Source of the DNA: Planctopirus limnophila DSM 3776
GTDB lineage: Bacteria; Planctomycetota; Planctomycetia; Planctomycetales; Planctomycetaceae
DNA: 32,000 nt
Direction of reading: 5' to 3'
Assembly (NCBI RefSeq): GCF_000092105.1
Contig: NC_014148.1
Location: forward strand, 4,680,001-4,712,000
Of the stretch, positions 1,938 through 31,437 are shown one piece after another (positions within the stretch are counted from its first letter, which is position 1; the number at the start of each line of letters is the position of its first letter). A program made the position numbers and the translations under genes. Under the pieces are notes generated by a model, which worked only from the letters and a program-made list of their open reading frames with translations, did no database searches and was not told the origin of the DNA.

Positions 1938-3500
1938 ATGAAACTGAAACGATGGCTGTTGACTCTATGCACTCTGGCTTTATGCGTGGTAAACCACTCG
2001 GAAGTTCCTTCAGCTCTGGCTGCTGAAACCACAGGAAAGCCCCAGGTTTCCCGGCCCAACATCGTGCTCATCTATGTGGACGATCTCGGTTATGGCGACA
2101 TCAGTTGTCATGGCGCCACGCTGGTCAAAACGCCCCATGTCGATCGATTGGCTCGCGAAGGACTCAACTTTTCTGATGGACACTCACCGTCGGCCACTTG
2201 CACTCCCTCGCGCTACGCCATGCTCACCGGCGAATATGCCTGGCGGAAAAAAGGGACTGGAGTTCTTCCGGGCGATGCCAGGCTGATTATTGAACCGGGC
2301 CGCCGCACTCTCGCTTCGACACTTCAAAAGGCGGGCTATCGCACCGGTGTCGTCGGGAAATGGCATCTGGGTTTAGGAGACGAAAAACTTAACTGGAACG
2401 GCGTCATCAAACCCGGCCCTCTCGAAGTGGGCTTTGATGAATCGTTCATCATGGCCGCGACCGGCGATCGAGTGCCATGTGTCTACGTTGAGCAGGATCG
2501 TGTGCTCAACCTTGACCCGAACGACCCAATCAAAGTCCAGTTCGGCAAACCAATTGATCCTGCCCTACCCACAGGGAAATCGCATCCAGAATTGCTCACG
2601 GTCATGAAGCCGAGCCACGGTCACGACATGACGATTATCAATGGTGTCAGCCGGATTGGCTATATGACAGGTGGCAAGGCCGCTCTCTGGAACGATCAGG
2701 AGATGGCCGATGTCTTTACCTCAAAAGCACTCAAGTTCATGACCGATCATTGGGCTCGCCATGCCGATCAGCCGTTTTTCTTGTTCTTTTCGCTGCACGA
2801 TATTCACGTTCCCCGCTTGCCTCACCCCCGCTTTGTCGGCAGCACCAGCATGGGCCCGCGCGGCGACGTGATTGTCGAAATGGATTGGTGTGTCGGTCAG
2901 GTGCTCGACAAGCTCGCGGCCTTAGGAATTGACGACGAGACGATGGTCATCTTTACCAGCGATAATGGCCCCGTCGTCGATGATGGATACAAAGATGAAG
3001 CCGTCACGAAGCTGAGTCATCATCAACCGGCTGGCCCTTATCGAGGTGGTAAATATAGTGCCTATGAAGGAGGGACTCGCGTCCCCTTCATTGTCCGCTG
3101 GCCAGGTCGCATCCAGCCGGGAACATCGAACGCGTTGATGTGTCAGATCGACCTCATGGCCTCGCTCGGCAAACTGGTGGGGCAACCTGTCCCACCCCAG
3201 GAAGCGTATGACAGTATTGATGTCCTTCCCGCTTTATTGGGTGAGTCACAGGCAGGTCGAGAGCAACTGGTGGAGCACTCGGGAGTTCTGGGCCTGCGCG
3301 CGGGCCCCTGGAAACTGATTGAGCCCGGCAAAGCCCCGCGTGTCTTCCAGCAGACCAATACCGAAACCGGCCAGCTCCCCAGACCTCGCCTGTTTAATCT
3401 CGAAGAAGACCCCGGCGAAACCCGCGACCTCGCCGAAGACCAACCCGAAAAAGTCAAAGAACTCCAAGCCCTCCTCGAGAGAATCAAAGGTGAGATCTAA
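1938..3500 (+). CDS. Secreted arylsulfatase (formylglycine-dependent sulfatase family)
   Basis: ATG 1938, TAA 3498-3500. Signal peptide LLTLCTLALCVVNHSEVPSALA. Metal-binding DDLGYGD. Canonical C-x-P-x-R motif in SATCTPSRYAMLTGEY. GKWHLG, HDIHVP, FTSDNGP and GGKYSAYEGGTRVPFIVRWPG are all intact. Confidence 0.92.
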   Translation: MKLKRWLLTLCTLALCVVNHSEVPSALAAETTGKPQVSRPNIVLIYVDDLGYGDISCHGATLVKTPHVDRLAREGLNFSDGHSPSATCTPSRYAMLTGEYAWRKKGTGVLPGDARLIIEPGRRTLASTLQKAGYRTGVVGKWHLGLGDEKLNWNGVIKPGPLEVGFDESFIMAATGDRVPCVYVEQDRVLNLDPNDPIKVQFGKPIDPALPTGKSHPELLTVMKPSHGHDMTIINGVSRIGYMTGGKAALWNDQEMADVFTSKALKFMTDHWARHADQPFFLFFSLHDIHVPRLPHPRFVGSTSMGPRGDVIVEMDWCVGQVLDKLAALGIDDETMVIFTSDNGPVVDDGYKDEAVTKLSHHQPAGPYRGGKYSAYEGGTRVPFIVRWPGRIQPGTSNALMCQIDLMASLGKLVGQPVPPQEAYDSIDVLPALLGESQAGREQLVEHSGVLGLRAGPWKLIEPGKAPRVFQQTNTETGQLPRPRLFNLEEDPGETRDLAEDQPEKVKELQALLERIKGEI

Positions 3501-9715: not shown

Positions 9716-12700
9716 ATGCATCCGGACGACAAAAAGACGGGCACGCCCGATGAAGAATCGATCTTTCTGGCAGCCATTGACATCGACGACCCTCAGCGGC
9801 GAAGTGCTTATCTCGAAGAGGCTTGTCTATCCGATCCTGCATTACTCAAACGAGTGGAAGCACTCCTTAAAGCGCATGAGGAATCGGGCGCGTTTCTGAA
9901 GATTGCCGGCCTTACCAATTTCGCAGGGAACACACGCGACGATACCGATGCCGAACCCAATGCTTCATCCGCTCCTGCAGGAGAAATTACCAGCGTCGAT
10001 TCGACCAGCAGTCAAGAACGCCTCGATTTATCGATTCTCACTCCCTCGACCAAGCCCGGTTCACTGGGGCGATTACTGCATTACGAGATCGAAGAAGTTC
10101 TGGGAAGTGGTGGTTGCGGGACGGTCTTTCGCGCTTTCGATGAAAAGCTGCATCGCCGCGTTGCTCTCAAGCTGATGGCACCGGAATTGGCAGTCACATC
10201 GCCAGCCAGAAAGCGGTTTCTGCGCGAAGCGCGGGCCTCAGCAGCCATTCGCCATGATAATGTCGTGCAGATTTACGCCGTCGAAGAACAGCCACTTCCT
10301 TTCATCGTCATGGAGTACATTGCAGGCAAAACGTTGCAGCAGATGCACGAAGAGAAGGGGCCGTTCTCTATCGACGAAGTCGTTGCCATTGGCCATCAGA
10401 TCGCCAGTGGCTTGGCAGCTGCCCATGCGACCGGGCTCATTCATCGCGATATCAAGCCAGGGAACATTCTGGTTGAAGATGGTACGCATCGCGTCAAGAT
10501 TACCGATTTCGGACTGGCACGCACTGCCGACGATGCGAGCATTACGCAAAGTGGCGTGATAGCCGGTACGCCGCTGTATATGTCTCCTGAGCAGGCACGC
10601 GGGGAGCCACTCGATTATCGTTCGGATCTGTTCAGCCTGGGAAGTGTGCTCTATGTCCTCTGCACAGGCAGGCCTCCCTTTCGTGCCGGCAATACGATGG
10701 CTGTCCTCAAGCGGGTGGTGGAAGACACGCCGCGCGACATGCACGACATTGTTCCCGAGATCCCCGTCTGGTTGATTGGCGTTGTCGAAAAGCTCCATGC
10801 CAAAGACCGCGAAGCGCGTTTTCAATCAGCGACAGAAGTGGCCGCCCGGCTGAATCTACGGGAAAAAGCTCCTCGCCTCGCTGAGTCTGAACTCCCCCAA
10901 GGTGATGCAAAACCGCTCAGTTCACAGGGAGAAAAACAGCCCCCGAAACAAGAACCTGCCACGACGGTCTTTCTCGCGGGTTCGCATAGGATCACCAGAC
11001 GGTTTTCGGAGGCAGTGCGCCAACCGTGGGGATTAGCCGCGACGGTTTTGCTGGCCATACTTCTCGGCTTTGGCATGACAGAAGCCTCCGGTGTTACCGC
11101 CGTCACGAAAACAGTCATCCGCCTGTTCACACCCACCGGGACACTCGTGGTCGAAGTCGATGATCCGAACATCTCTCTGAGAATCGATGGGCAGGAAATC
11201 GTCGTGACTGGTGCCGGTGTGAAGGAACTTCGATTGCAGCCCGGTCAGTACGAAGTGGAAGCCAAAGAGGGGGATGCCCTCATTCTCAAGCAGTTGGTCA
11301 ACATCTCCAGCAATGGTCGGGAAGTGCTCAAGATTAGCCAGGAAGCCACGAAAAAACCCGCTCAGGCCACAGCCACAATGGGCCAATCAAGTGCTGGATC
11401 GGGGCTTTACAAAGATCGCTCGGTAACCATTCTCAAAGGGAACTGGACGGCAGACGGCAACGAAGTCGTCTTGTCATCCATATTTCCATCTCACATGAGT
11501 TTCGGAAATCCGGCGTGGACGGATATCGACTTCAGCTATGAAACGATGACCACTTCGAATGCCGCCGACAGTCAGGGAGGAATTGGCCTCTTTCGCGTGC
11601 TCGATTTCAATAATGTGCTGAATTTCCCTTTGGGTGCGTATGGTGGACGAGCGATTGAACTCAATCGAGTCATCGAGGGGAAATGGAGCCGCGATAACGA
11701 CGGTGGATATCTCAATTTCGCCTTCGAGCGACAGCGCTGGTATCAAGTCAAGCTGCAGCTTCGCGGCGATAAAACGACCTGTTTTCTGGATGGAGCACAG
11801 GTTCTCACGATGGCCGATCCTCATCGTCTTCAAGGGAAGGTCGGGTTCGCCAGTTGGAACGCTGCGGTTCGCTTTCGCAACATCCGCGTCACCGACCCGC
11901 AGGGAAATCTGCTCTGGGAAGGAGTTCCCGATCTGCCGCAGGTATCACCAGCTGCACCGATTCCGGCAACATCCAAAACGGTTGATCCCGCCGCACCTGT
12001 GGTCACCATGCAGCATATCGACCCGGTGCGCTGGGTCGCCTTCAGCAAAGATGGTTCACGAATCGTTTCGGCCAGCAATGGTGATGATCACGAGATTCGT
12101 GGCGGGATTCGTTATCACGTCGCAGGGAAGGATAACACAGTTCGCGTGTGGGATGCCCAATCCGGTAAAGAGATTCGCCGCTTGTGGATGACGGAAGGGA
12201 GTCATTACGGCCCTATGGGGATTGCCATCTCACCGGATGGAACATCGCTCGCGGCCTCTTCGGGCTGGGCGACGGCCAATGGCCCTTCGGAGCCGCGAGT
12301 CTATGTCTGGAACATGGAAACCGGCGAGCGGTTGCATCACTTCCCGCTGGCCGACAATCACTGCGTCCGCTGTGTGACATTCTCGCCTCAGGGAGGTGTG
12401 GTGAAGCTGGCCCGCAGTGGGAAAGGGGGCATTAACTCATGGACGTTGCCCGAAGGAAAAGAACTGCCCCGAGTCGTTTTTCAAGAGACTCCACCCGGAG
12501 TCGAAGCACCGCGAATGTCGTTCTCGCCTGATGCAAACTATTTGTTGAGTGCAGTGTGGAATGGCGCGGGTGAGATCCGAGCGTGGAAGACTGACGCCGG
12601 CGAGATTGCCAAAACTTTTCAGGGTCATACGAGGCCCCCCACACATGTGGTGATGTCGGCCAATGGCCAGTTGCTCCTCTCCTGTGCACCAGACTTTACG

Positions 12701-14683
12701 ATCCGACTGTGGGATTGGGCTTCAGAACGACAATTGCTCTGCATCGGCGACGATGAGATCCTCGACAGCCAACCTCGTTGCGTGGCCTTCTCGCCGGACG
12801 GCTCATCCTTTGTGGTCGGTGATGACTCCGGCCAGGTTTCGCTTTACGACACCCGTTCTGGATCGATTCTCGAACGATTCACTGGCCACGCTGCAAGGGT
12901 CAATGATGTTGGTTTCTCGGCTGACGGCAAACGTCTCGTCTCGGGGAGCGACGATCGTACCGTTCGCATCTGGCCCCTTTCCGATCATCCACTATCCGAT
13001 CGACTGATGACGGAGAATGTCAACCCGAGCGCTGGCTCGGATCACGCTGCCACCCGCTATGTGCTGAACCAACAGGGTTCCGTTTGGATCAACGGGGAAT
13101 CGACCGCACGGCAATCGCTGTCCGTCGCGGAATTCGCCAATTCTGTGCAACTCACCGGAATTGAATTTAGAAACAAGCGCGACCTCGACGCGAAGGACTT
13201 CGAAGTCTTTTCCGGATGTCGGGATCTTGAAAAGGTGCGGCTGGGATTCTCTTCCATCAGCGATGCCCACTTGAAACCTCTGGAGAATCTGCCAAAGCTC
13301 ACGCACCTTGAACTGAGCCAGTGCGAGAAGGTCACGGGGGCGGCGATCCGAAAGTTCAAGCACCTGACACATCTGGAAGCGTGGGCGGTGCCCGTGGGTG
13401 ACGACGATCTCGCCCCCCTCAAAGACAACCCTTTCAGAAACCTCGATCTGGGTGGCACGCGGATCACAGGAAAAGCCCTGGCGGCATTCACCAACCTCTC
13501 GGATCTCCGCAGTTCACGGCTGGCCTTCACATCGATCAAAAACAAAGATCTTGCCGCACTCAAGGATTGCCATCGACTCACCTTCCTCGCGCTTTACAAC
13601 ACGGGGATCGGTGATGAAGGTGTTCGCGAGATCTGCGAACTGAAGGCTTTGCGATCTCTTGAGCTGCAGGGTTCCAAAGTCACCAACGAGGTCTTTTTCT
13701 ATTTGATGAAGCTACCCCATCTGCTCTCGGTCGATCTGCGGTACACTCAGGTCACGCCAGAGGCGATCGAGTCATTCCGCAAGCAGAAACCGCTTTGCGA
13801 AGTAAAGTGTGATGCGGGCGTGCTGCCGAGATGGGAGCCGAATGGCGATGAACTGGTGAAGAACGCCAAGGCCGATCGCGCAGCGGCAGCGTTTGTCCTC
13901 AAACAGGGAAAATACGTCTGGCTCGATAATGCCAAAGATCCGCTGCACGGGGACCCGGCGATACTGCCGCCGCACCTGTTCAAATTGACGGGGATCAGTC
14001 TTGAAGGGTTGAAAACTCTCACACCTCGTGATTTCGAGATCTTCAAAGGGTGCCAAAACTTGTCCGATCTGCAGCTTTTGAACATGGGAATCACCGACGA
14101 ACATCTCAGGGCGTTTGAAGGAACAACCTCCATCACAAAGTTAAAGCTCGATGGCCAGGCAGTAACGAGCAAGGGGCTCTCGTACTTTTCAGGCTGCAAA
14201 AGGCTGACCTTTTTATCCGTCTGGGCCACACAGGCAGATGACAAATTCATCCAGTCGATCGCGTCACCTGATTACACTTATCTCAATCTCGGAGGCACTC
14301 GGATCACCGATGCCTCGATCGCGGCCTTTGAAAGCTTACAGAATCTGGAAATGGCGACTTTGAACTTTACCGGGCTGACCGACGAGGGTATCGAACATCT
14401 GGCCAGTGCTGAAAACCTTACTTACCTCGGACTCAATCACACACGATTGACCGACGCCTCAGCCAAAGTTTTTCTCAAGCTCAATCAGCTCGAAGAACTG
14501 ACCCTCAGCAACACACAGTTCAGTGATCAGGGTTTATTGCTGCTGGTGAACGCCCTGCCCAACCTGAAACGACTGAATCTCCTCGAAACGAAGGTCACGG
14601 CCGACTCCGTCGACAAATTCCAATCCTTGCATCCGAAATGCCGGATTCTCTGGAACGGTGGTGAGTTCAAGGACTTCAATTGA
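9716..14683 (+). CDS. Giant membrane Ser/Thr protein kinase with extracytoplasmic lectin-like, WD40 and duplicated LRR modules
   Basis: ATG 9716, TGA 14681-14683, 1655 aa. The Hanks kinase domain spans about nt 10079-10850 (GSGGCGTVF, VALK, HRDIKPGN, DFG, GTPLYMSPE). One TM helix lies at about 11027-11083 (WGLAATVLLAILLGFGMTEA). A DUF1080/jelly-roll-like segment spans about 11420-11900 (ends VRFRNIRV). WD40 repeats span about 12010-12980 (DNTVRVWD, DFTIRLWD, DRTVRIWP). Two paralogous leucine-rich-repeat modules follow at about 13037-13810 and 13871-14680. Confidence 0.9.
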   Translation: MHPDDKKTGTPDEESIFLAAIDIDDPQRRSAYLEEACLSDPALLKRVEALLKAHEESGAFLKIAGLTNFAGNTRDDTDAEPNASSAPAGEITSVDSTSSQERLDLSILTPSTKPGSLGRLLHYEIEEVLGSGGCGTVFRAFDEKLHRRVALKLMAPELAVTSPARKRFLREARASAAIRHDNVVQIYAVEEQPLPFIVMEYIAGKTLQQMHEEKGPFSIDEVVAIGHQIASGLAAAHATGLIHRDIKPGNILVEDGTHRVKITDFGLARTADDASITQSGVIAGTPLYMSPEQARGEPLDYRSDLFSLGSVLYVLCTGRPPFRAGNTMAVLKRVVEDTPRDMHDIVPEIPVWLIGVVEKLHAKDREARFQSATEVAARLNLREKAPRLAESELPQGDAKPLSSQGEKQPPKQEPATTVFLAGSHRITRRFSEAVRQPWGLAATVLLAILLGFGMTEASGVTAVTKTVIRLFTPTGTLVVEVDDPNISLRIDGQEIVVTGAGVKELRLQPGQYEVEAKEGDALILKQLVNISSNGREVLKISQEATKKPAQATATMGQSSAGSGLYKDRSVTILKGNWTADGNEVVLSSIFPSHMSFGNPAWTDIDFSYETMTTSNAADSQGGIGLFRVLDFNNVLNFPLGAYGGRAIELNRVIEGKWSRDNDGGYLNFAFERQRWYQVKLQLRGDKTTCFLDGAQVLTMADPHRLQGKVGFASWNAAVRFRNIRVTDPQGNLLWEGVPDLPQVSPAAPIPATSKTVDPAAPVVTMQHIDPVRWVAFSKDGSRIVSASNGDDHEIRGGIRYHVAGKDNTVRVWDAQSGKEIRRLWMTEGSHYGPMGIAISPDGTSLAASSGWATANGPSEPRVYVWNMETGERLHHFPLADNHCVRCVTFSPQGGVVKLARSGKGGINSWTLPEGKELPRVVFQETPPGVEAPRMSFSPDANYLLSAVWNGAGEIRAWKTDAGEIAKTFQGHTRPPTHVVMSANGQLLLSCAPDFTIRLWDWASERQLLCIGDDEILDSQPRCVAFSPDGSSFVVGDDSGQVSLYDTRSGSILERFTGHAARVNDVGFSADGKRLVSGSDDRTVRIWPLSDHPLSDRLMTENVNPSAGSDHAATRYVLNQQGSVWINGESTARQSLSVAEFANSVQLTGIEFRNKRDLDAKDFEVFSGCRDLEKVRLGFSSISDAHLKPLENLPKLTHLELSQCEKVTGAAIRKFKHLTHLEAWAVPVGDDDLAPLKDNPFRNLDLGGTRITGKALAAFTNLSDLRSSRLAFTSIKNKDLAALKDCHRLTFLALYNTGIGDEGVREICELKALRSLELQGSKVTNEVFFYLMKLPHLLSVDLRYTQVTPEAIESFRKQKPLCEVKCDAGVLPRWEPNGDELVKNAKADRAAAAFVLKQGKYVWLDNAKDPLHGDPAILPPHLFKLTGISLEGLKTLTPRDFEIFKGCQNLSDLQLLNMGITDEHLRAFEGTTSITKLKLDGQAVTSKGLSYFSGCKRLTFLSVWATQADDKFIQSIASPDYTYLNLGGTRITDASIAAFESLQNLEMATLNFTGLTDEGIEHLASAENLTYLGLNHTRLTDASAKVFLKLNQLEELTLSNTQFSDQGLLLLVNALPNLKRLNLLETKVTADSVDKFQSLHPKCRILWNGGEFKDFN

Positions 14684-20081: not shown

Positions 20082-20284
20082 GCAAAACCCTCGCCCGCGT
20101 CCTGTACCACAGGGTTCCAGACACCTCTTCTCCAGCCAGTAATTGACAAAGCACACGAGCAACGTTGTACCTCAGAGACAGCCGCGTAAGCAGGTATGCT
20201 TGCAGTGCACAGCCAGACTGCGGAAGATATTGCCAACCGATTTTCACGTCGCGATCAATTGACCTTCAGCAGCAGGTGCCACTT

Positions 20285-28782: not shown

Positions 28783-29150
28783 TTCACTCCTTCTCCCAGT
28801 GATGTCCCTGATACGCTTTGAGTGAGGCAAGAGAACAGGTTCCAGCCCTCATCAGGCCTTTCCACACGAAAGGCTCGCTCAGTCGAACACCAGCAAGGCC
28901 CGTTGCTGACATTTCTCAATCTATCGGCGACACACCCTCGATTGATGGCAAAAATTGCCGAATGTCGCTTCGACACCTCCATGATACATGGACTTAGGGA
29001 TAATGGGTAAAATTTTCCGCCGCAAGCGTCAGCAACCTGCGAGATCCCAGATCGTGAAAATGGATAATTGCGATAGATACATGGATCCGGGGTTTTGGCT
29101 GATCCAGGGGGTTCTGCGGCATCCTTGCGCGTTCAAAGAATCTCGATTGC

Positions 29151-29523: not shown

Positions 29524-31437
29524 ATGTTGCCGGATCGCCAAGCGTACTTGAATCAGCGTCGCCTCACTCGCATTGTCTCGGGGCTTTGCCTGCTCTTTGC
29601 CTGCCTGATCTGGATCCTCACAACCAGCCCGACACCTGTCGTACTCGCACAAATCACTCCGGAAACGAGTGTTGACACCACCTCGGCAGCCCTCGCCGAC
29701 CGCCCCAACATCATCGTCATCATGGTCGATGACCTCGGCTGGCGAGACACTTCCATCTACGGCAGCAAGTCGTCCCGCACTCCTCACATCGATGCCCTCG
29801 CCGCTCGCGGCGTCATCTTCACTCAAGCCTACTCGAGCAGTTCGCTCGATGAACCCAGCCGGGCCAGCCTCCTCACTGGAAAATGGCCCGCACGTCTGAA
29901 GCTGACTCAATCGCGGGAACTCAACCCGGGCGAAATTCTCGAACCCTCTTTGCCACAAACCGCCCTTTCCCATATCTCGATGATCACCCCGACATCACGC
30001 ACTCAACTCCCTGGCGATGAACTCACTGCAGCAGAAATTCTCCAAAACGCAGGCTATGCCACCGCTTTCATGGGCGAATGGAACCTGGGCGAAAACGCTT
30101 CTCAGCCAGAAAATCAGGGCTTCTCTCACGTTGTCTGCAGTTCGCCGCTTACCAGTCAGCCGCAGTTCGCCGGTCAACATGCTGATGATCTGCTGACACA
30201 ACAGGCCATCAACTGGATGGAAACCAATTCAAAGGAACCGTTCTTTCTGAATCTGTGGTATCAATCAGTCGGTGCACCTTTTCAAGCTCCATCTGGGGAT
30301 ATACAGCAGGCACGCACATTGGCAGACCCCTCTCAAGATCCACAGCAGGCCCCGGTCATGGCCGCCATGATCGCGGCACTCGACCAGCGCGTCGGCCTCA
30401 TTGTCGCCGCACTGGAGCGACTCCAGCTCACGCAGCGCACCATCATCGTTTTCACCTCCGATAACGGTGGCAACATGACCGACACGATCGAAGGCGACCT
30501 CCTCACCAGCAATCGACCGCTCCGTGGTGGCAAAGGCTCGATGTATGAAGGGGGCAGTCGGGTCCCTCTCATCGTCGTCTGGCCTGGCGTCGCCACTCCT
30601 GCTCGCAGCTGCGACGACGCCGTCAGTGCTGTGGATCTCCTCCCGACCCTGGTCGATATGGCGCGCGGCACCATCCCCGCAGGTCATCAGATTGACGGCG
30701 TCAGTCTGAAACCCGCACTCACAGGGGCCACAGGTTTTGATCGAGGTGCCATCTTTCATCACTACCCGCACTACAACCCAACGACAGGAACCACACCTGC
30801 GATCTCTGTTCGCAGTGAAAACATGAAGCTCATTCGCTTCTTCGGTGGTCATGTCACCCAGACAGACCGCATTGAAGTCTACGACCTGCAGAATGATCCC
30901 GGCGAGCGCATCAACCTCGCACGTTCACGCCGGGATGAAATCGTACGCCTGACGAACCTCATCCAGAACTTTCTCATAGAAACCCGCGCATTGGTTCCAC
31001 AGAAAAATCCGAACTTTGAAAGACCGCAACAAGGCTGGGCGACTGGTGCCGATGCCGAAGTCGAAGATGGCGAGCTAGTCCTCAAACGTTCCGGAGATCG
31101 ACCCATTCTCTTTGAAACCTACGATGTACCGCATGTGAATCGGCAACTGCGCCTTCGCCTGCCACTCAAGACCTCGTCCCGCATGGAAGGGCGTGTCATG
31201 TGGTCAACTGCCAGCGAGCCAAGCTTTACGCAAAACCGGCAGGCCAAATTTGCAGCCACACAGACAGGTGAATGGGAAACTCACGAGATCACCTTGCCAG
31301 TTCAAGACCTGCTCACCGGGATCCGCATCGAGTTCGGTCGAGGAAATAGCGACCTCTCTCTCGGCTGGATCCGGGCCGAACTGATCGATGGCAACCTCGT
31401 TAAAGAATGGCAATTCGGCGAAGTCGAATCTGAGTAA
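29524..31437 (+). CDS. Sulfatase-family protein with a degenerate active site (pseudo-sulfatase) and an extra C-terminal beta-rich domain
   Basis: 637 aa with a signal/anchor (IVSGLCLLFACLIWILTT). The sulfatase fold is clear (IIVIMVDDLGWRD, FTSDNGGN, GGKGSMYEGGSRVPLIVVWPG). However, the FGly position is Asp (SSLDEPSRASLLTG; GAT at 29848-29850). GKWHLG is replaced by GEWNLG (30076-30084). The HxP His is Gly (SVGAPF). About 130 extra C-terminal residues follow. Confidence 0.85.
   Translation: MLPDRQAYLNQRRLTRIVSGLCLLFACLIWILTTSPTPVVLAQITPETSVDTTSAALADRPNIIVIMVDDLGWRDTSIYGSKSSRTPHIDALAARGVIFTQAYSSSSLDEPSRASLLTGKWPARLKLTQSRELNPGEILEPSLPQTALSHISMITPTSRTQLPGDELTAAEILQNAGYATAFMGEWNLGENASQPENQGFSHVVCSSPLTSQPQFAGQHADDLLTQQAINWMETNSKEPFFLNLWYQSVGAPFQAPSGDIQQARTLADPSQDPQQAPVMAAMIAALDQRVGLIVAALERLQLTQRTIIVFTSDNGGNMTDTIEGDLLTSNRPLRGGKGSMYEGGSRVPLIVVWPGVATPARSCDDAVSAVDLLPTLVDMARGTIPAGHQIDGVSLKPALTGATGFDRGAIFHHYPHYNPTTGTTPAISVRSENMKLIRFFGGHVTQTDRIEVYDLQNDPGERINLARSRRDEIVRLTNLIQNFLIETRALVPQKNPNFERPQQGWATGADAEVEDGELVLKRSGDRPILFETYDVPHVNRQLRLRLPLKTSSRMEGRVMWSTASEPSFTQNRQAKFAATQTGEWETHEITLPVQDLLTGIRIEFGRGNSDLSLGWIRAELIDGNLVKEWQFGEVESE

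Follow-up and report, generated by a model that had tools for sequence, protein, structure and literature searches.

A selected, probably non-catalytic sulfatase homologue in the genus Planctopirus

Sulfatases of family S1 are counted by the hundred in the genomes of planctomycetes and other members of the Planctomycetes-Verrucomicrobia-Chlamydiae (PVC) group, and these counts are taken as a measure of degradative capacity. Here, we describe a gene of the freshwater planctomycete Planctopirus limnophila DSM 3776 (Planctomycetota) whose product is named "arylsulfatase" or "sulfatase" in public records and in which several residues of the sulfatase active site are replaced. The gene was found in a 32,000-nucleotide stretch of contig NC_014148.1 (RefSeq assembly GCF_000092105.1, positions 4,680,001 to 4,712,000 of the forward strand), hereafter the window, to which all positions below refer. 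It had been singled out in an earlier reading of the letters of the window (the original prediction). The P. limnophila genome (G000) was compared with four others, namely G001, G002 (Planctopirus ephydatiae), G003, and G004, the most divergent congener.

The gene and its two-domain product

The gene is a single uninterrupted frame, and its product can be divided into a putative export signal, a catalytic domain of the sulfatase type, and a C-terminal domain:

29524 to 31437, forward strand: complete open reading frame (ORF) of a degenerate S1 sulfatase homologue, 637 amino acids plus stop.
29524 to 29649, forward strand: putative N-terminal signal peptide or membrane anchor, residues ~1 to 42, read from the sequence as a hydrophobic helix followed by VLA/Q.
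29698 to 31023, forward strand: sulfatase (alkaline-phosphatase-like) catalytic domain with its C-terminal subdomain, residues 59 to 500, from Pfam, alignment to 9fo1, and Foldseek.
31024 to 31434, forward strand: β-jelly-roll domain resembling carbohydrate-binding modules (CBMs), residues 501 to 637 (137 amino acids), with a predicted local distance difference test score (pLDDT) of 93 in an AlphaFold (AF2) domain model.

Residues 61–380 match Pfam family PF00884 (E 3e-49) and residues 337–472 match PF16347 (SGSH_C-type subdomain). Among solved structures, the closest is 9fo1_A, an S1_16 κ-carrageenan sulfatase (HMMER E 1e-89, 39% identity over residues 59–511), on which an AF2 model computed with 69 input sequences (pLDDT 88.8) superposes with a Foldseek E of 1e-45 and a target-normalised TM of 0.88. 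The S1_16 structures 9fo1, 7oza, and 7oz9 are all among the best solved relatives, and the class is taken from these alignment and structure matches only. At the N-terminus the model has a helix at residues 5–34, followed by a low-pLDDT linker (38–47), which we read as an export signal or anchor, and the protein is accordingly regarded as putatively secreted. A twin-arginine (Tat) signal, prompted by the residues QRRL, was dropped as a candidate since G003 reads QFRL at this place.

The C-terminal domain has no Pfam match at E 0.1 or better, and its Atlas neighbours are without a name or called "galactose-binding domain-like". Foldseek relates its fold to CBM4, CBM29, CBM16, CBM6, and a hyaluronan-binding module (E 1e-4 to 1e-3), and VIA-align superposes it on modules of CBM families 4, 6, 22, 29, and 35 and on the hyaluronan-binding module with Z of 10–11 and a root-mean-square deviation of 2.2–3.4 Å over 102–123 residues. 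The original prediction had counted an extra C-terminal domain of about 130 amino acids as a peculiarity of this protein. About 137 residues do extend beyond the 520-residue canonical sulfatase encoded at 1938–3500 of the window, but the domain is common to the whole family of 600–660 residues to which the protein belongs, canonical members included, and is also found as a small protein of its own and attached to other proteins of the PVC group. By its distribution in these alignments it is ancestral to the family and not an addition to the Planctopirus protein.

The gene has a divergent neighbour upstream and a convergent one downstream, both unrelated to it, and thus appears to be transcribed alone. 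The surrounding genes encode a FabF-like ketosynthase, a MOSC protein, a MacB/FtsX permease, a Cys-rich secreted protein, a methyltransferase, and an esterase-like protein. Within the ~690-nucleotide "empty" gap upstream of the gene, positions 28837–29035 are conserved with G004 (tblastx 52–69% identity over ~60 codons, in several frames and on both strands) and may represent a short gene or else a conserved leader or regulatory element. Synteny between G000 and G002:C1:306000-360000 begins only at about window position 20165; the initial 20 kb, including the sulfatase at 1938–3500 and a 1655-residue ORF at 9716–14683, are without a counterpart in the compared stretch of G002.

Replaced and retained residues of the active site

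Residues were assigned to columns in three alignments, one made by HMMER with 9fo1 and two by MAFFT (one of them with the 120 best homologues), and all three agree. They uphold, together with the codons, the four replacements of catalytic residues originally predicted (Cys to Asp, Lys to Glu, His to Asn, and His to Gly), as well as the retention of the metal ligands (DD and DN) and of the GGK Lys in an open 637-codon frame. The positions that matter for the argument are:

29728 to 29733, forward strand: metal ligands Asp69-Asp70, kept and invariant in all orthologues.
29845 to 29862, forward strand: degenerate formylglycine (FGly) motif L-D109-E-P-S-R113, family consensus L-C-S-P-T-R, from the alignments.
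29920 to 29922, forward strand: Leu133, replacing a His conserved in 61 of 64 family members and aligned with the Trp of TDWIPG in 9fo1.
30073 to 30090, forward strand: G-E185-W-N187-L-G, replacing GKWHLG, from the alignments.
30160 to 30165, forward strand: Pro213/Gln214, junction where 15 loop residues present in the canonical orthologue of G004 are deleted, from the alignment.
30271 to 30273, forward strand: Gly250, replacing the His of V-H-x-P (GGT in place of CAT in G004).
30460 to 30465, forward strand: metal ligands Asp313-Asn314, kept and invariant.
30532 to 30534, forward strand: Lys337 of the R-G-G-K motif, kept, from the alignments.

Asp109 lies under the formylglycine Cys, with LDEPSR facing CSPTR of 9fo1; the motif is encoded by CTC GAT GAA CCC AGC CGG, and codon 109 is GAT against TGC in G004. 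The adjoining residue is also changed (S110E), giving Glu110 in the Planctopirus clade. Glu185 and Asn187 occupy the columns of the Lys and His of GKWHLG (GGC GAA TGG AAC CTG GGC), and Gly250 is aligned under the His of VHTP in 9fo1. Position 133 is probably, as an inference from Luis et al., the sugar-stacking (0-subsite) position of S1_16 enzymes. At the loop deletion, the family-conserved Pro residues at 210–214 are gone and the AF2 model falls below a pLDDT of 50 (residues 209–213). The motif Arg, listed as retained in the original prediction, is indeed present in the protein of the window (Arg113), but it is Gln in G002 and in the clade copy P0002.

Formylglycine, made from Cys or Ser, is needed by S1 sulfatases, and all 4058 curated S1 sequences have Cys or Ser at this position (PMC5066984); their chemistry also needs an invariant sulfate (S) site (PMC5066984; Luis et al.). 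The Planctopirus protein has the S1 fold with its PF00884 match and the Ca ligands (DD...DN), and it lacks both the Cys or Ser to be converted and an intact S site (motif Arg, Lys and His of GKWH, His of HxP, and Lys of GGK). The formylglycine-generating enzyme (FGE) cannot convert Asp to formylglycine, and only two of the five residues that contact the sulfate are left. From established knowledge of S1 enzymes and the alignments, the protein should therefore not be an FGly-dependent sulfate-ester hydrolase.

The same replacements bear on what could bind in the old sulfate pocket. With K185, H187, and H250 lost and D109, E110, and E185 gained, the pocket would be acidified by a net shift of about −4 charges, as counted from the sequence changes. 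The first option of the original prediction, a binding protein for sulfated substrates, taken here as a lectin that recognizes sulfated glycans through the former S site, could draw on the retained sulfatase fold and cleft, on K337 and (in most copies) R113, on the attached CBM-like module, and on the behavior of engineered Cys/Ser-to-Ala sulfatases, which bind substrate without turnover, as in solved structures (e.g., 6psm, C77S with ligand). However, the negative charges would lie around the site of an anionic sulfate group, R113 is Gln in two of the copies, and the His aligned with the probable S1_16 sugar-stacking position is now Leu. We regard a lectin of this kind as very improbable. Of the two possibilities originally put forward, binding of sulfated substrates or a changed nucleophile, the common premise that FGly chemistry is lost is well supported, and the binding of sulfated substrates is doubtful in view of the acidified pocket and of the drift at positions 113, 185, and 187 described below.

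Distribution, rate shift, and selection

The replacements are not a chance effect. In the family members aligned from outside the genus, the Cys, Arg, Lys, His, and His at columns 109, 113, 185, 187, and 250 are each invariant (64 of 64), and among the 120 best database matches Asp occurs in the FGly column in only one cluster, 93% identical to the protein of the window and carrying the names Planctopirus ephydatiae and P. hydrillae; all others have Cys. A word search with residues 96–136 against clusters representing 5.8 billion proteins gave no further protein with the DEPSR motif. The variant is carried by the four species genomes G000–G003 (93–95% amino acid identity, no stops) and by metagenome copies. 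The protein of G004 (MBA4030375.1, from a metagenome-assembled genome labelled "Planctomyces sp.") is 58% identical and canonical (CSPTR, GKWHLG, VHAP), and it is the positional orthologue, as G004 shares the upstream synteny with the window. By these alignments, the substitutions are confined to one Planctopirus clade and arose after its split from the G004 lineage. The two checks on the FGly position proposed with the original prediction thus gave the same answer: the alignments to 9fo1 and to the 120 best homologues placed Asp there, not Cys or Ser, and the survey of orthologues found Asp in all copies of the Planctopirus clade and Cys in G004.

Two more distant metagenome proteins also lack the FGly Cys. 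P0122 (JGI metagenome, 2712 amino acids) is a giant protein with five or more sulfatase domains in tandem, of which four have Gly at the FGly position (G-A/F-P-S/T-R) and keep DD, GK, VH, DN, and GGK intact. P0204 (491 amino acids) is an independent homologue in which the FGly position is occupied by Asp (ADDATR) and K, H, DN, and GGK are lost as well; it is fully degenerate.

The P. limnophila genome itself has 37 sulfatase-domain genes, and 35 of the other 36 have Cys at the FGly position, among them the neighbor at 1938–3500, which has the canonical motifs attributed to it by the original prediction (CTPSR, GKWHLG, HVP). The one exception (G000:C1:931972-932709) is a weak PF00884 match with VTWPNHT at the nucleophile position and is a Thr-type, NPP/phosphodiesterase-like protein rather than a sulfatase. 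FGE homologues are present (eight PF03781 matches, the best at 296 bits). Together with the 35 Cys-type paralogues, they indicate that FGly maturation is functional in P. limnophila and that only the homologue described here stands outside it; for that protein the presence of FGE is irrelevant, since it offers no Cys or Ser for conversion. The closest paralogue in the same genome (G000:C1:2456464-2457771, 40% identity) keeps the FGly Cys (CAPTR), but its counterpart of GKWHLG is GMWNLG, in which Met replaces the Lys and Asn the His. Its ratio of nonsynonymous to synonymous substitution rates (dN/dS) is 0.11–0.15 against G001 and G003, and it is a candidate for a second sulfatase with partial degeneration. 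An apparent broken sulfatase in G002 with one TGA was considered as a contrast and rejected, as it holds an open frame of 529 residues and is without a G000 counterpart.

The gene is under purifying selection across species. All nine full-length copies from the four species genomes and metagenome assemblies are uninterrupted (eight distinct sequences of 637 amino acids and a 629-residue alternative start call of the P. ephydatiae gene). In the six pairwise comparisons among the four species genomes, dN/dS is 0.13–0.21 over the whole gene, 0.11–0.19 in the catalytic domain, and 0.03–0.12 in the C-terminal domain, where constraint is strongest. As controls, 19 neighboring genes compared between G000 and G002 gave values of 0–0.32 with a local median of ~0.08, and three canonical sulfatase paralogues from the same genomes gave 0.11–0.15.

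These values bear directly on the question of whether this is a recently inactivated, functionless sulfatase gene on its way to loss, in which stop codons have simply yet to appear. Such a fate would fit the restriction of the changes to one genus, the drift at former active-site positions, and a dN/dS somewhat above the local median. However, the ratios are far below 1 and equal to those of active paralogues, those of the C-terminal domain are lower still, no stop or frameshift is present in nine full-length copies from at least four species, and the stem of the clade carries about 90 extra substitutions, by which the loss is old relative to the crown and there was ample time for disruption. 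We therefore hold a functionless gene to be a very unlikely explanation. The original prediction had likewise judged the gene not to be a pseudogene and had named strain-specific changes with elevated dN/dS as the sign of decay; this sign is absent, as the variant is clade-wide and its dN/dS is like that of neighbors and canonical paralogues.

The substitutions were accompanied by a burst of change. In a maximum-likelihood tree from a quick IQ-TREE search, the stem branch of the Asp clade measures 0.87 against 0.20 in the canonical sister, an approximately fourfold difference, and the asymmetry was checked independently by relative-rate counts (Tajima test, 97 versus 26 lineage-specific changes, p 1.5e-10). 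The excess is found only in the catalytic domain (76–92 versus 18–25 changes, compared with 3–8 versus 5–15 in the C-terminal domain). Across all 2016 canonical pairs of the family, conservation of the C-terminal domain stays below that of the catalytic domain (mean difference −24 points; standard deviation 7 in the 1422 pairs with 48–70% catalytic-domain identity), whereas between G000 and G004 it is the more conserved part (62% versus 57%, +5). For scale, a neighboring gene is ~71% identical in amino acids between these two genomes, which implies that synonymous sites are saturated. Among 107 family-conserved columns, 19 have changed in the clade and 6 in G004, and the clade-specific changes cluster at the FGly motif (105–113), H133, K185/H187, the 210–214 loop, and H250.

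Within the clade, part of the old active site has since drifted and part is fixed. Among copies 93–95% identical to that of the window, position 113 is Arg or Gln, 185 Glu or Lys, and 187 Asn or His, so that three of the six former nucleophile and S-site positions are polymorphic versus 11.4% of mature columns (Fisher p 0.022). The apparent "reversions" E185K and N187H (P0002, P0270) are read from protein sequences and a quick tree with SH-aLRT support of 81–96. D109, E110, G250, K337, and the four metal ligands are the same in every copy.

A rival reading is a neo-functionalised enzyme, in which either Asp109, as nucleophile or general base, or a metal-activated water would be used together with the retained Ca/Mg site and Lys337, for the hydrolysis or transfer of a non-sulfate substrate such as a phosphate or phosphonate ester, or of a neutral or cationic one suited to an acidic pocket. 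Members of the alkaline-phosphatase superfamily show catalytic promiscuity, and depending on the family the nucleophile is Ser, Thr, or FGly. The invariance of the metal ligands and K337 and the fixation of D109, E110, and G250 would fit such an enzyme, as would the catalytic-domain dN/dS, equal to that of active paralogues. C109D and H250G required at least two nucleotide changes each, which, with a burst centered on the active site, fits adaptive remodelling. Against this, the variation at 113, 185, and 187 in near-identical orthologues is unexpected for a tuned active site, the lack of further DEPSR proteins in the word search leaves no wider family of such enzymes, and the one other protein observed with Asp at the FGly position, P0204, has also lost the DN ligands and the Lys and is plainly dead. 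Moreover, an Asp nucleophile is to our knowledge not known in the alkaline-phosphatase superfamily, and none turned up in literature searches. We consider a new catalytic function unlikely overall, and its most specific form, an FGly-independent active site on the sulfatase scaffold made of Asp109, the retained divalent-metal site, and Lys337 and acting on a non-sulfate substrate, decidedly improbable; if true, it would represent a new nucleophile or a new chemistry for the superfamily.

A probable pseudo-sulfatase and its relation to known systems

We favor, with moderate confidence, the view that the gene encodes a secreted, Planctopirus-specific pseudo-sulfatase that is non-catalytic and most probably binds a glycan or another ligand. 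The loss of the residues, their clade-wide conservation, the purifying selection, and the acceleration specific to the catalytic domain are direct observations; from the conserved scaffold, the Ca site, and the strongly conserved CBM-like module we infer a selected non-catalytic role and, with it, the complete absence of catalysis, the binding function, and the nature of the ligand. The ancestor would have been a Cys-type sulfatase resembling S1_16 enzymes and already joined to the CBM-like module. Once its lineage had separated from that of G004, formylglycine chemistry was lost through C109D, K185E, H187N, and H250G, together with S110E, H133L, and the 15-residue loop deletion. Purifying selection maintains the overall fold, the residues that bind Ca, and the β-jelly-roll at the C-terminus. 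The product could then act outside the cytoplasm as a glycan- or ligand-binding protein without catalysis, with the CBM-like domain carrying most of its function and the remodelled cleft, now more acidic, as a secondary site. Asp109 may complete the Ca coordination that is normally given by FGly.

Several points weigh against this pseudo-sulfatase. The metal site and Lys337 are strictly conserved, which is also compatible with some persisting catalytic function, and D109, E110, and G250 are fixed in all copies, be it for structural reasons or because they form a newly tuned site. The clade has little depth (dS 0.15–0.27), so that purifying selection is measured over a short time. The CBM-like label denotes fold similarity alone at ~10–17% identity, with no match to a Pfam or CAZy family, and the gene context, in which the gene is alone among unrelated neighbors, gives no hint of a ligand or function. 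Expression and binding are predicted features of the proposal.

The scope of the case is narrow, i.e., one genus and one gene among 37 with a sulfatase domain. Nevertheless, it illustrates that a gene annotated as "arylsulfatase" or "sulfatase" can be a selected non-sulfatase, so that motif-level checks matter for inventories. It also appears to offer a clean natural case of the birth of a pseudoenzyme, with a canonical positional orthologue in the same genus, a burst limited to the catalytic domain, and then purifying selection again. These features make the protein a tractable system in which to study why a dead sulfatase scaffold with a CBM-like module is kept; genetic tools exist for Planctopirus limnophila.

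In relation to known systems, we rate the protein as a probable pseudoenzyme derived from an S1_16-like sulfatase and restricted to one genus. With the other members of its own 600–660-residue family (P0003–P0121, from Planctomycetota, Verrucomicrobiota, and others, and the G004 orthologue) it shares the two-domain architecture and 38–58% identity, but these all keep CSPTR, GKWHLG, and VHAP, and only the Planctopirus clade is degenerate. With the characterized S1_16 sulfatases (the κ-carrageenan sulfatase 9fo1 and the 4S-Gal/GalNAc sulfatases BT3057 and BT3796) it has in common fold, homology, Ca ligands (three Asp and one Asn), the Lys of RGGK, and (as predicted) secretion. It differs from them by Asp at the FGly position, by the replacement of the GKWH Lys and His and the HxP His, by the change at the putative sugar-stacking position, and by the 15-residue loop deletion; in turn, their solved structures are without its C-terminal CBM-like domain. 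A functional parallel is provided by the GH18 chitinase-like lectins, pseudoenzymes of carbohydrate-active enzymes whose scaffold has stayed under selection after the loss of catalytic residues and which are presumed to bind; their fold and chemistry differ from those of the Planctopirus protein, for which a binding role is our proposal. No description of a naturally occurring S1 homologue with a replaced nucleophile and demonstrated selection came up in literature searches, and the only related statement concerns nine S1 sequences from Lentisphaerae and Planctomycetes in SulfAtlas that have Ile or Leu for the motif Arg and "may be inactive" (Barbeyron et al. 2016, PMC5066984). Like the Planctopirus protein, these are sulfatase homologues from the PVC group without an essential catalytic residue. 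However, they keep the Cys or Ser nucleophile, whereas the Planctopirus protein has replaced the nucleophile and three further residues, and in its case selection on the degenerate copy is demonstrated.

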